Shown in pieces: positions 1 to 7,527 of a stretch of DNA of 7,527 nucleotides. How positions within the stretch are numbered: the first letter of the stretch is position 1; the number at the start of each line of letters is the position of its first letter. The DNA comes from a virus (taxonomy: Duplodnaviria > Heunggongvirae > Uroviricota > Caudoviricetes), in IMG/VR virus record IMGVR_UViG_2609460218_000012; one strand, written 5' to 3'. Both the position numbers and the translations under genes were made by a program. Under the pieces are notes generated by a model. That model worked only from the letters and a program-made list of their open reading frames with translations. It made no database searches and had not been told where the DNA came from.

Positions 1-75
1 ACTCTGCTGAACAATAGCGATCTTTTCCTGTGTAGTACGCCGTCTGCGTTTCTCCGGTCCTAAGACATCAATCAT
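1..75 (-). CDS. insC: IS2 transposase OrfA (InsC), N-terminal fragment; continues off the window edge
   Basis: Minus-strand ATG at 75..73 translates [25 protein letters not shown], the recognised N-terminus of IS2 OrfA. The frame is open to position 1. Confidence 0.85.
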
Positions 76-166
76 CTGCTCTCCAATGACTAGTCTAAAA
101 ACTAGTATTAAGACTATCACTTATTTAAGTGATATTGGTTGTCTGGAGATTCAGGGGGCCAGTCTA
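1..166 (-). mobile_element. IS2 insertion sequence (IS3 family), partial: left inverted repeat and leader; body continues beyond window start
   Basis: Reverse complement of 1..166 reads TAGACTGGCCCCCTGAATCTCCAGACAACCAATATCACTTAAATAAGTGATAGTCTTAATACTAGTTTTTAGACTAGTCATTGGAGA..ATGATTGATGTC, which I recognise as the IS2 left terminus (IRL) and leader running into the insC start. Terminus at position 166. Confidence 0.9.
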
Positions 167-1349
167 CACATTGCCACCGCAACTCTCTCCGATCCATTCC
201 GCCATTATCTGGAGAATATTATCGAGGGCATCTTCGAGGGAGTTCGCCATTGTATAAAGCGGCGAGTTTTCCTGCATTCGCTCTTCATTAGTCTGATCAA
301 CAGATTTGGTGGATGTATTTTCAGCACGCAGAAGTTTAGCGCCGGCATGACGCATCTGATTTTCCAGCTTCTCAAGTGATGTTTCGCCAGATTCTATCGC
401 TGCGCCACTATGTTCAACATATTCGAGGCCATTTTTTGTTCTGTCCTCAAAAATCGTAGCGGTGGATGCACCAACCGTCAGTTCTTCATTCCTGTCCAGC
501 CCGTAGGCCACCAGCAATGGAACGCGGGTAACATGAAGAATATTGTCCTGCTCGCTCTGGCTTTGCCAGTGCTTGATATTCAGCAAGCCAAGATTAAGCA
601 ATGGCGGTGTACCACGCATAAATCCTGTTTTCTTCGTGTACAGTGTTACCAGAGGAATATCATCACGGCTGGTATTCCATGACTCATGAAGCGTCCAGAC
701 AGATTCGCCATTAGTGCCTTCGCTACGTCGATAAATTTCAACTCGACGGGGCATAATATGGCGGATCTGCTCCACCTTCTTCTGCCCGAAATCATCACCA
801 TCAATAATGATGACCTCTTTTATACGCAAATCAGTGAGAACAACTTTCCCTTTTTCAACTTTCGATTTCCATCCAATAACCTGGCGTGGATTCAGCATCG
901 TAACGTACGGACGACCACCGGTCGCGTTTTCATCGGCTTTTGTACGAATCTCTTTCATATCCGTTCGTGGATAGTCCACCAGCGCATGTGCCACACCATA
1001 CTGAAATGCGAGGCTGAAAAATTGCTGCGCCCACACATCCAGTCGGCTCCCCTCCATGTCGATATTTTCTGCATATTCCCTGATTTTTGCCGGCGTTTCC
1101 TCACTCAATACTGTCGGCTCTGCAAATATGCGCCCAATATTTTGCTTGATGCTTTCTTCATACACAGGAAGTAGCGTAGCCACAGACAGGCGNTTTTTTA
1201 TAAGCGTCTTCATCTTCGTTAGGCCATTTTGGGAGATAATTTTCCCCCTGCCTGCGCATTTCAAGCGTACCGCCCATCAGTGCGTCGTTAATATCCCACG
1301 CCTCCAGCATATCGTTATAGTCGAGGTTGGGTGTTGATATATCAGCCAT
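164..1349 (-). CDS. Putative phage portal protein, disrupted: 3' end truncated by IS2 insertion, apparent frameshift at ambiguous base 1193
   Basis: ATG at 1349 lies 2 nt after the terL stop, the position a portal gene normally occupies in a packaging module. Two track ORFs (1158..1349 and 164..1264) join into one frame if the n at 1193, inside an A-run, is a spurious inserted base (..[20 protein letters not shown]..). The reading frame runs into the IS2 terminus and stops at the TAG that forms the first 3 bases of the IS2 IRL (164..166). Portal assignment rests on synteny and size, not a recognised motif. Confidence 0.55.
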
Positions 1350-1351
1350 AA

Positions 1352-5686: not shown

Positions 5687-5772
5687 ACGGAGGGGTTGCT
5701 GGTAAAGTTAGGTATTGGATCAATGAGTGAGTCAACATAATATTAAACTCACAATTATAAATCAGCCATATA

Positions 5773-7233
5773 TTAGGAGCGCCAAAAAAAACCTGAAAAC
5801 AATATAATAACAGGATAAATTTCAAGGCGACCAAGAATCATAGCTATGCACATTAAACATTTTGCAATGTCATTAAGCACTCCGAATGACGATGCAGTAG
5901 CCCCAAAACCTAATCCCATATTATTAATACATGCAGCCACTGTTGCAAATGATGTAAGAAAATCATATCCCATACCATTTAACACCAGTATAAAAAACAC
6001 CGTAAAGAGAGTATAAAGNAAAAAAGAAACTCCATACAGACCTCATTACACGATCTGTAACTATCTTCCCTCCTACATTTACACTCAACAACGCTCTGGG
6101 ATGAGAAAGCTGATTTATCTCGTGTTTGCTTTGTTTGAAAAGTATAAGAAATCGAAGTGACTTAATTCCACCACAAGTTGAACCTATACATCCCCCAAAG
6201 AAACTTGACAACAGCAAAAACACTATCGTGTGCGTGGGCCAACTTGCATAATCCTGCGTAGCTAAACCATTATCAGTGAGCATGGAGCTGGCAAGAAAAA
6301 ACGAATGAATAAAACTTCCATGCAAGTCATACATACCTATATGCCAGACCTGGAAAGAGGTAACAATGATCACCCCTAAGGCTATTAACAGAAAGAAACG
6401 AAGTTCAATATCTCTGATTAAAGGTTTTATCGTTTTCCTGCTAATAACAATATACCAAAGAGTGAAGTTGAAAGCCGATAGCAGGGAAAAAGAACCAGCC
6501 ACCAGCTCAACCAAATAGTTATTAAAATATCCGATACTCTCGCTATGAGTTGAGAAACCACCAAGCGAAACTGTGGAAATCCCGTGACAAATAGCATCAA
6601 ACAAAGGCATTCCTGCAAGTCTATAACAGACAATACAAGCAATACCTAATAAAGAATAAGTTATCCACAGTGTCCGTGACGTATCGGCCAAGCGGGGAGT
6701 GAGTTTGTCATCCTTAAATGGCCCCGGCATTTCTGACTGATAAAGCTTTGCACCACCAATACCCAATAATGGCAATACAGCAACCGCCAGAACAATAACT
6801 CCTAAACCACCTATAAAATTTAACTGTGACCGATAGTACAAATATGCCCGAGGTAATGAACTAACATCATCAATTACAGTTGCTCCTGTTGTTGTTATTC
6901 CAGAAACCCCTTCAAACAGAGCATCAATGAACGTTAAATTAAGTTCTGAGTCAATCCATAAAGGGAATGCACTAATAACAGAAAACAAAATCCAAAACAT
7001 TACAATTATAATAAACCCATCACNNGTACGTAATTGAATGCCAGATTTCTTAGTTGTATACCACGCTCCGCCACCAATGCNAAAAAAATATAACGAAAGT
7101 TATNAAAGAAAACGAACAGGCTTTTTTCTTTATAAAACAATGCTACAACCATTGGTGGCAACATTGAAAGACTATAGAGCCAAACCAGGAACCCACACAT
7201 ATGAGTAACAACTCTTACATGAGATGTATTCAT
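5773..7233 (-). CDS. trkG: TrkH/TrkG-family K+ uptake membrane protein (TrkG, Rac-prophage type); reading frame broken by ambiguous bases
   Basis: Three track ORFs (7006..7251, 5963..7000, 5773..6000) together give a TrkH-family protein: MNTSHVRVVTHMCGFLVW.., GITTTGATV, GGCIGSTCGGIKSLRFLILFKQ, and C-terminal ..NNMGLGFGATASSFGVL..GRLEIYPVIILFSGFFWRS. It matches my recollection of E. coli TrkG. True start is ATG 7233 (MNTSH); the track's 7251 start is a TTG. Frame changes occur at n positions 6019 and 7024/7025, in or next to homopolymer runs, so they are likely artefacts. Visibly AT-rich (about 35 to 40% GC in sampled stretches) against 45 to 55% in the terminase genes. Confidence 0.9.
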
Positions 7234-7259
7234 ATCTAAATATTCTTTCAATTATAACC

Positions 7260-7527
7260 TGACCTGCCCCCACGATTAGATACAACACTCAGTTAGTAAC
7301 GTCGGAATCTTCATTCTCAGAATGACCCTTTCTCCAGCCCGCTGCAAATTCAGACGGTGTCTGATAATTCAGCGTGGAGTGCGGGCGGCATTCGTTATAA
7401 TCCTGCCGCCAGTCATTAATAATTTTCCTGGCATGAACGATATCGCTGAACCAGTGCTCATTCAAACATTCATCGCGAAATCGTCCGTTAAAGCTCTCAA
7501 TAAATCCGTTCTGCGTTGGCTTGCCCG
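7260..7527 (-). mobile_element. IS3-family insertion sequence, IS2-like, partial: right end (IRR) and OrfB 3' end; body continues beyond window end
   Basis: Encodes the C-terminus of an IS3-family OrfB on the minus strand. Outside-in terminal sequence TGACCTGCCCCCACGA (from 7260) is an imperfect inverted match to the IS2 IRL TAGACTGGCCCCCTGA. Same orientation as the IS2 fragment at 1..166. Exact terminus uncertain by 1 to 2 bp. Confidence 0.8.
7289..7527 (-). CDS. insD: IS3-family transposase OrfB (IS2 InsD-like), C-terminal fragment; continues off the window edge
   Basis: Minus-strand translation [78 protein letters not shown] then stop (TGA at 7291..7289). The [20 protein letters not shown] block is characteristic of the IS3-family OrfB C-terminus. 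Assignment to IS2 specifically is from recollection. Confidence 0.8.

Follow-up and report, generated by a model that had tools for sequence, protein, structure and literature searches.

The window analysed here, a whole stretch of 7,527 nucleotides, begins and ends inside an insertion sequence (IS), which raises the question of how a block of prophage genes came to lie between two such ends. A preliminary description, made from the letters alone, read both ends as IS2-type and in direct orientation, and allowed for a composite-transposon-like segment that could be deleted by IS-IS recombination, a circular molecule carrying a single IS, or a contig ending in a collapsed IS repeat. The evidence discussed below supports, at a probability of about 0.85, a reading in which the whole window is one draft contig, derived from an E. 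coli strain whose Rac-type lambdoid prophage was hit by two separate transpositions.

The left end of the window is IS2, a member of the IS3 family. It occupies positions 1..166 on the minus strand, with the IRL terminus, TAGACTGGCCCCC, at 166, and about 2,190 E. coli records hold IS2 copies that match all 166 nucleotides exactly. The start codon of insC/orfA lies at 75-73, about 90 nt into the element, and the reading frame runs down to base 1, so that 25 residues of the InsC N-terminus are translated from the window (75 to 1); the start of this CDS matches that of an annotated IS3-family transposase in L031. The same record holds a full IS2 copy of 1,331 bp with the same end, and IS2 copies at other sites are flanked by the 5-bp duplications CGTTG and TTCTG, the latter in L031. 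Alignment to the uninterrupted allele of L001 places the junction between 166 and 167. CACAT at 167..171 is the predicted 5-bp target-site duplication, of which one copy is visible in the window, and a second copy looked for beyond IS2 was not found. The body of IS2 is situated past the left window edge, 166 bp of the element being inside.

The right end belongs to a different member of the IS3 family. Positions 7260..7527, again on the minus strand, are the last 268 bp of an ISSen4-like element, the body of which is situated past the right window edge. Its IRR terminus, TGACCTGCCCCCACGATTAG, is located at 7260, and the element is closed by the terminal inverted repeat TGACCTGCCCCCACG. The last 79 codons of OrfB lie at 7289-7525 on the minus strand (rve_3, 2.9e-28). 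Comparison with annotated (PGAP) ISSen4 reveals the same terminal repeat, with the terminal 29 nt in common, and identities of 98.6% for DNA and 98.7% for OrfB. Against IS2, the OrfB identity falls to 32.8% and the DNA has no usable homology, the sole match being a 25-bp stretch at 84%; its terminus reads TGACCTGCCCCC and is not the IS2 IRR, TGGATTTGCCCC, that two IS2 ends would require. The assignment of two IS2-type ends is thus correct on the left and mistaken on the right, where the element should be named ISSen4-like, and the direct orientation holds, both ends being on the minus strand. We take ISSen4 to be a member of the IS407 group, by its TGACCTGCCCCC termini and 4-bp duplication; the reference copy measures 1,221 bp and is flanked by a duplication of 4 bp, and the duplication of the copy in L002 is AACA. 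Comparison with L001, L004 and L005 places the ISSen4-like junction between 7259 and 7260, and AACC at 7256..7259 is the predicted 4-bp target-site duplication of this insertion. A second copy of AACC was looked for and not found.

The unique segment between the IS ends spans 7,093 bp (167-7259). It is colinear with uninterrupted Rac-type prophages and retains the native gene order; its genes, all on the minus strand, are the remaining part of the portal gene, terL, terS, a small HTH gene, a TAGT glycosyltransferase gene, a ParB-like gene and trkG. The terminase large subunit (terL, 1352..2653, 433 aa) carries Terminase_6N and Terminase_6C domains and is so annotated by RefSeq in the identical L001 gene, and the small subunit (terS, 2634..3728, 364 aa) carries Terminase_2. 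The small gene at 3732..3983 encodes 69-83 aa resembling part of a terminase small subunit (phrog_309, 8e-23) and is annotated as hypothetical in L001 and L003. It is followed by a TAGT-family glycosyltransferase of 310 aa at 3919..4851 (PF20691, 8.4e-35; phrog_842, 1e-103) and a ParB/Srx N-terminal-domain protein of 263 aa at 4844..5635 (ParB_N; phrog_620), which corresponds, at full length, to the ynaK that is truncated in K-12 Rac. The K+ transporter gene trkG, a prophage moron, occupies 5773..7233 (TrkH, 1.5e-107); its GC content is 35-40% versus 45-54% for the phage genes, and a terminator-like hairpin with a 10-bp stem (7 GC pairs) and a following T run is situated just downstream of it on the same strand (5663..5686). 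The trkG-ynaK block, which in K-12 Rac and the intact relatives follows the lysis genes, identifies the segment as part of a Rac-type lambdoid prophage.

At least 80% of the window is covered at one place in 728 complete E. coli genomes, part of the cover in the best of them being due to an IS2 copy elsewhere. In E. coli 1943, the one genome aligned base by base, every difference except one falls on an N, and this single real SNP, at 6691 in trkG, is what separates the block from the uninterrupted prophage. Seven ambiguous bases are present in the window, in agreement with the earlier suggestion of a draft assembly. The N at 1193 in the portal gene and those at 6019, 7081 and 7104 in trkG are extra bases, the NN at 7024-7025 in trkG stands in place of GG, and the N at 3470 in terS stands in place of G. 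The extra Ns lie beside homopolymers, and the frameshifts linked to them in the portal gene and trkG are spurious; in trkG and the 5' part of the portal gene they should be treated as sequencing errors.

The portal gene (DUF4055 / PHROG 145) extends over 167..1349 on the minus strand and comprises codons 1-394 of 468 (DUF4055, 3.5e-45). In the raw reading the N at 1193 splits the ORF; without this base the product is identical to residues 1-394 of WP_000763704.1. Where the intact allele encodes an aspartate, at residue 395, the window has a stop codon, the TAG at 164..166, which consists of the first three bases of IS2. The portal ORF indeed runs into IS2 and terminates at its terminal TAG (166-164), as had been described. 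Membership of the portal family is supported by matches to phrog_145 (3e-165) and to solved portal proteins (1.9e-17). PHROG 145 members and the solved portals align up to residues 458-467, well beyond codon 394, so a C-terminal region conserved in the homologues is missing and a protein that is already full-length at the junction is excluded; the view that the left IS cuts the portal gene is borne out, with 394 of 468 aa kept. The exact 394-aa product is recorded in 38 blocks of a public collection. The truncated portal is probably non-functional, and a prophage carrying it would reasonably be expected to be unable to assemble capsids. The gene is best annotated as an IS2-disrupted pseudogene. 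IS2 insertions in other E. coli genes show the identical left terminus and insC start and likewise end the host ORF; in contrast to these, the site at portal codon 395 occurs in none of 5,426 complete E. coli genomes, though draft and metagenome assemblies show it repeatedly.

Five independent public assemblies (L006-L010) contain both junctions without a single base changed; they come from different samples and different assemblers, and eight more contigs of this kind are reported. The five contigs reach 139/140, 127/127, 70/138, 47/52 and 28/27 bp into the two elements, respectively, and each stops about k-1 bases inside either IS (139/140 for k141, 127/127, and 28/27 for k31). Such stops indicate contigs broken at multicopy repeats, and their occurrence with other assemblers means several continuations per IS in the assembly graph. 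The contig-edge part of the collapsed-repeat reading is thereby supported; the collapse of one IS is not, since the two elements differ. Neither junction is present among the 5,426 complete E. coli genomes, the site upstream of trkG included, which distinguishes it from the known ISSen4 insertions there, and hence no assembly bridges either IS. Apparent extensions of 15-22 bp past IS2 in some complete genomes are chance similarities and do not represent this junction. The IS2 junction is also present in more assemblies besides L006-L010. One strain of the lineage is represented by GCA_012037245.1 (contig JAAUJK010000122.1). In L004 and L005 it is found together with an intact region upstream of trkG, which argues that the two insertions were independent events. 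We infer that IS2 was inserted before the ISSen4-like element. L009 carries both IS on an L005-like SNP haplotype, L009 and L005 being metagenome assemblies, and its SNP pattern fits no clean order of insertions.

The course of events would then be as follows. IS2 would have been inserted into portal codon 395, where its terminal TAG ends the frame with loss of the last 74 residues, placing 1.3 kb of IS between the portal gene and the sequence downstream. The predicted site reads, in plus orientation, GTGCGCACATCCACAT followed by IS2 from TGGATTTGCCCC through 1,331 bp to GGGGGCCAGTCTA, and then CACATTGCC; beyond IS2, CACAT, the terminal 225 bp of the portal gene and then a Mu-F-like minor head gene are predicted. 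In a second event, the ISSen4-like element, a different IS3-family member, would have been inserted 26 bp upstream of trkG. Here the predicted arrangement is TTATAACC, the element from TGACCTGCCCCC through about 1,221 bp to GGGGAGCAGGTCA, and then AACCACCTTGCTGCAAT and the Rz/lysis genes, with AACC and ACCTTGCTGCAAT immediately beyond the element. Both elements are presumably multicopy in the genome, for which reason the assembler would have been unable to extend and the contig would end a read-length inside each. Since no sequence beyond either IS could be recovered, each event is only presumed to be a simple insertion with target duplication, of CACAT for IS2 and AACC for the ISSen4-like element.

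The same searches bear on the alternative that fares best, an IS-mediated rearrangement after insertion, in which the IS copy or copies border a deletion or inversion formed via the same IS elsewhere, which would leave the 7.1 kb block as an isolated prophage remnant, with the head genes and the 3' end of the portal gene lost or situated far off. We consider this improbable, at clearly lower odds than two simple insertions, though it deserves more weight than any other rival. It is in keeping with the failure of exact-match scans of the JGI metagenomes and IMG/VR to recover the predicted far-side IS2 junction, and with the failure to locate the missing portal 3' part beyond IS2. Likewise, 88-aa IS2-portal fusion ORFs, built from two IS2 variants, were not on record in an exact look-up, and a homology search with the fusion ORF returned no representative covering the IS2-derived N-terminus. 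Decay also comes easily to this prophage family: the whole counterpart of window 167-5381 is deleted from K-12 Rac, and in other lineages the same portal gene is disrupted by nonsense mutations, frameshifts or IS1. The absence of the far side is, however, absence of evidence, because the near-side IS2 junction is equally missing from exact-match scans of GTDB representatives, JGI metagenomes and IMG/VR, as is the near-side ISSen4-like junction from GTDB representatives, which indicates that the lineage is not represented in these collections.

The first bases of many contigs are exactly ATGTG or AATGTG, the former being the predicted duplicated pentamer, without any IS2 overhang. These starts speak against a rearrangement in an ambiguous way; they were rejected as proof of target duplication, as convergence of two alleles in the assembly graph or a tagmentation hot spot would be equally possible, and among the contigs listed they have no sample in common with the near-side contigs. 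Recorded portal 3' products of 75, 73 and 63 aa were considered as IS2 remnants and rejected; they stem from other lesions, namely W-to-stop changes, the end of an IS1, a Nextera adapter, a frameshift and a nonsense mutation in codon 405.

Under the preferred reading of two separate insertions, the position of the second one invites a functional question. Intact relatives carry the Rz/lysis genes upstream of trkG; in the window the ISSen4-like element stands 26 bp upstream of the trkG start codon, and its transposase gene reads toward trkG. It is conceivable, at rather long odds, that the insertion rewired trkG expression through read-through or a hybrid promoter, so that the block was kept in a successful lineage, with the portal knock-out locking the prophage in place. 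Promoter scans for a sigma-70-like site found none where ISSen4 newly meets the trkG region or where IS2 meets the portal gene, and the intact allele has one minus-strand promoter match upstream of trkG, which is within chance expectation.

A composite transposon or translocatable unit, in which the IS ends jointly move the 7.1 kb block or recombine to delete it, is very unlikely. Classical composite transposons such as Tn10, Tn5 and Tn9 consist of two copies of one IS around a cargo, and the window resembles them in having a multi-gene segment bracketed by IS ends, here in direct orientation, from the same broad family and with terminal repeats sharing a GCCCC core. In contrast to these transposons, the ends of the window come from non-homologous elements: the OrfB proteins of ISSen4 and IS2 are 25% identical, their terminal repeats are TGACCTGCCCCCACGATTAG and TAGACTGGCCCCCTGAATC, respectively, and the global DNA identity is at background, the best local match being the same 25 bp. 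Moreover, the cargo remains in native prophage order relative to uninterrupted genomes, and in two contigs the IS2 junction is present and the ISSen4 junction is not. The segment is not a member of this class, and the proposals of a composite-transposon-like segment, of IS-IS deletion and of a circle with one IS all fail because the two elements differ.

An assembly chimera, in which one or both IS-prophage junctions would be absent from the genome, might be suspected in a draft with Ns and homopolymer errors, and is just as improbable given the recurrence of both junctions in the five assemblies and eight further contigs and of the IS2 junction in still others. A circular molecule with one IS, or contig ends that are collapsed copies of one IS, would fit the observed layout, in which the opposite edges carry an IRL and an IRR end on one strand, and is nevertheless the least probable of all, with IS2 on the left, an ISSen4-like element on the right, and other assemblers also stopping about k-1 inside each.

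Among the closest known systems is the cryptic prophage Rac of K-12 (rzpR-trkG-ynaK-ydaY). Window 5382-7259, comprising trkG and the 5' part of ynaK, is 99.4% identical to it, the gene order is the same, and Rac, too, is decaying and has a structural gene interrupted by an IS (IS5 in lomR). In contrast to the window, which retains them all, K-12 Rac has deleted the full ParB-like gene, the TAGT gene, terS, terL and most of the portal gene, and its IS elements differ, as do their sites. The window is ordinary: it holds 7.1 kb of a Rac-type prophage that is common in E. coli, its contig stops at a repeat on either side, and it has little consequence beyond annotation. The two junctions could be used as lineage markers, because they are shared by several isolates and gut metagenomes and occur in none of the complete genomes searched. 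For the Rac-type prophage family, the portal gene is lost by many independent routes, and the present case is one further example.

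The window is bounded by the ends of two different insertion sequences. Window 1-166 (minus strand) matches IS2 copies from about 2,190 E. coli records at 100% identity, with the first IS2 bases, TAGACTGG, at 166 and the insC start at 75, as the preliminary description had read this edge. A complete copy of the same variant (L031) measures 1,331 bp and has the 5-bp duplication TTCTG on both sides; a second variant, 96% identical, carries the duplication CGTTG in E. coli 2EC1 (L003). The right end, also described earlier as IS2-type, comprises the 3' end of an IS3-family transposase gene (7527-7289, minus) and a terminal repeat reaching 7260. 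Compared with PGAP-annotated ISSen4, window 7260-7527 shows 98.6% identity, and its edge encodes 78 residues with 98.7% identity to ISSen4 OrfB as against 32.8% to IS2 OrfB. Between full-length ISSen4 and IS2, OrfB identity is 25% and the DNA shares a single 25-bp match at 84%. The IS2-type assignment of the right end thus fails; this end belongs to another branch of the IS3 family. The reference ISSen4 copy (L002), 1,221 bp long, has the termini TGACCTGCCCCCACG... and ...GGGGAGCAGGTCA and is flanked by the 4-bp duplication AACA; from the termini and the duplication length we take the right-end element to belong to the IS407 group.

Both junctions, 166|167 for IS2 by alignment with the uninterrupted allele and 7259|7260 for the ISSen4-like element, recur base for base in five contigs, from an NCBI isolate assembly, three ENA metagenome assemblies and a Logan assembly; beyond these five, eight similar places are reported. 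The five contigs all end within both IS, with overhangs of 139/140 bp (MEGAHIT k141), 127/127, 70/138, 47/52 and 28/27 (Logan, k31). Overhangs of about k-1 are expected from a de Bruijn assembler at the point where a unique path runs into a multicopy repeat. The window's overhangs, 166 bp in IS2 and 268 bp in the ISSen4-like element, together with its homopolymer Ns, identify it as the same object seen with an older read technology. Both junctions are real, and the window ends where assembly broke off at two different repeats, which upholds the earlier suggestion of a draft contig ending in IS. Neither junction occurs in any of 5,426 complete E. coli genomes; extensions of 15-22 bp past IS2 in some of these were rejected as chance similarity. 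The metagenome contigs L004 and L005 carry the IS2 junction with the region upstream of trkG uninterrupted, so the two insertions are separable events. IS2 probably inserted before the ISSen4-like element, although a contig with both IS on an L005-like haplotype (L009) prevents a firm order.

Since the two elements differ, the other readings offered earlier for the paired ends fall away. The ends share no homology through which IS-IS recombination could delete the segment, though either IS could recombine with further copies of itself in the genome. A classical composite transposon is out because one transposase cannot use both ends, and a circle with a single IS and a collapsed repeat of one IS are impossible. 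The preliminary description read the sequence correctly apart from one misidentification, and its set of interpretations was too broad.

The segment between the junctions, 167-7259, is colinear with E. coli prophages; at least 80% of the window is covered at one place in 728 complete genomes, part of the cover in the best-ranked rows being due to a separate IS2 copy within the same prophage. In E. coli 1943 (L001) the segment lies unbroken in a lambdoid prophage, with lysis genes on one side and head and tail genes on the other. Window 5382-7259, consisting of trkG and the first part of ynaK, is 99.4% identical to the annotated cryptic prophage Rac of K-12, in which the counterpart of 167-5381 is entirely gone. 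The segment is thus a Rac-type prophage less decayed than K-12 Rac, where the ParB-like gene ynaK is cut to its first 87 codons whereas the window encodes a full-length ParB/Srx N-domain protein (5635-4844). Aligned with L001 over 7,093 bp, the window shows eight differing positions, seven of them Ns; those at 1193, 6019, 7081 and 7104 are additional bases adjoining T6, A6, A7 and A3 runs, and the rest (3470, 7024-7025) stand in for G or GG, leaving A for G at 6691 as the sole real difference. The raw portal ORF is split into 63-aa and 366-aa pieces and trkG is broken three times; as these frameshifts coincide with extra Ns next to homopolymers, they are sequencing artefacts rather than pseudogenisation.

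Every substantial ORF is on the minus strand. By Pfam/PHROG, the ParB/Srx N-domain gene is followed by a TAGT-family glycosyltransferase (PF20691, 4851-3919), a small protein resembling part of a terminase small subunit (3983-3732), the terminase small (3728-2634) and large (2653-1352) subunits and a DUF4055 portal gene (1349-167). The glycosyltransferase family is described as 'TET-associated'; its gene overlaps and directly follows the ParB/Srx N-domain gene, just ahead of the terminase genes, and no TET/JBP dioxygenase occurs within the window.

IS2 cuts the portal gene. Once the spurious N is removed, the window retains residues 1-394 of the intact 468-aa allele with zero substitutions, and D395 is replaced by TAG, the first three IS2 bases, as noted earlier; an exact copy of the 394-aa product is found in 38 blocks of a public protein collection. 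Alignments extend over residues 1-467 for PHROG portal family 145 and through residue 458 for solved portal proteins, so the protein is not already full-length at the junction, and the refuting condition that the preliminary description set for the truncation does not hold. The truncated portal has likely lost its function.

Simple insertion, with the remaining portal sequence beyond IS2, would be the default; an IS-mediated deletion adjacent to the element seems unlikely. Neither junction scans of other collections nor remnant-ORF look-ups yielded a far side for either IS. More than 40 public contigs (L039-L050 among them) begin within two bases of ATGTGGATGTGCGC, exactly the pentamer that IS2 insertion is predicted to duplicate, many of them exactly at ATGTG or AATGTG. 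None of the contigs starting there has an IS2 overhang, and these starts are not accepted as proof of target duplication; they may reflect alleles that converge in assembly graphs or a tagmentation hot spot.

Related prophages in public assemblies (L014, L016, L018, L019, L021-L030) show several independent inactivations of the same portal gene. They comprise a nonsense mutation at codon 405, giving 404+63 aa and seen in 66 blocks with one protein named from Shigella sonnei; a frameshift (398+73 aa) present in the complete genome AP027467; an IS1 end lying 14 bp from the IS2 site; and two distinct W-to-stop mutations. An ENA metagenome contig (L015, 1-27) begins with a Nextera mosaic-end adapter, AGATGTGTATAAGAGACAG, fused to the portal at ATGTGGATG; this start is adapter contamination in a public assembly.

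The ISSen4-like junction lies 26 bp upstream of the trkG ATG (trkG, 7233-5773, minus), and the element cuts off the native upstream region beyond that point. Promoter scanning predicts no sigma-70-like site at the ISSen4/trkG junction; read-through into trkG is conceivable, as the transposase gene points that way. A perfect TATAAT stands at 7250-7255 (minus), 3 nt outside the terminus and 17 nt upstream of the ATG. It may not be a promoter, since neither the IS end nor the intact allele has an acceptable -35 hexamer 16-18 nt from it. The GC content of trkG is 35-40% as against 45-54% in neighbouring phage genes, and a terminator-like hairpin (5686-5663, minus; 10-bp stem and T run) lies 3' of it; both features are consistent with a self-contained moron lodged between lysis and packaging genes.

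A different IS2 insertion, with the CGTTG duplication, lies in rrrD of the same prophage in E. coli 2EC1 (L003, 9371-10701), next to an ISEc52 pseudogene (10905-12074). IS3-family elements have thus landed repeatedly in this prophage region. The biology is that of IS insertions in a decaying prophage, viewed via a repeat-bounded draft contig; it is routine and already known in kind.
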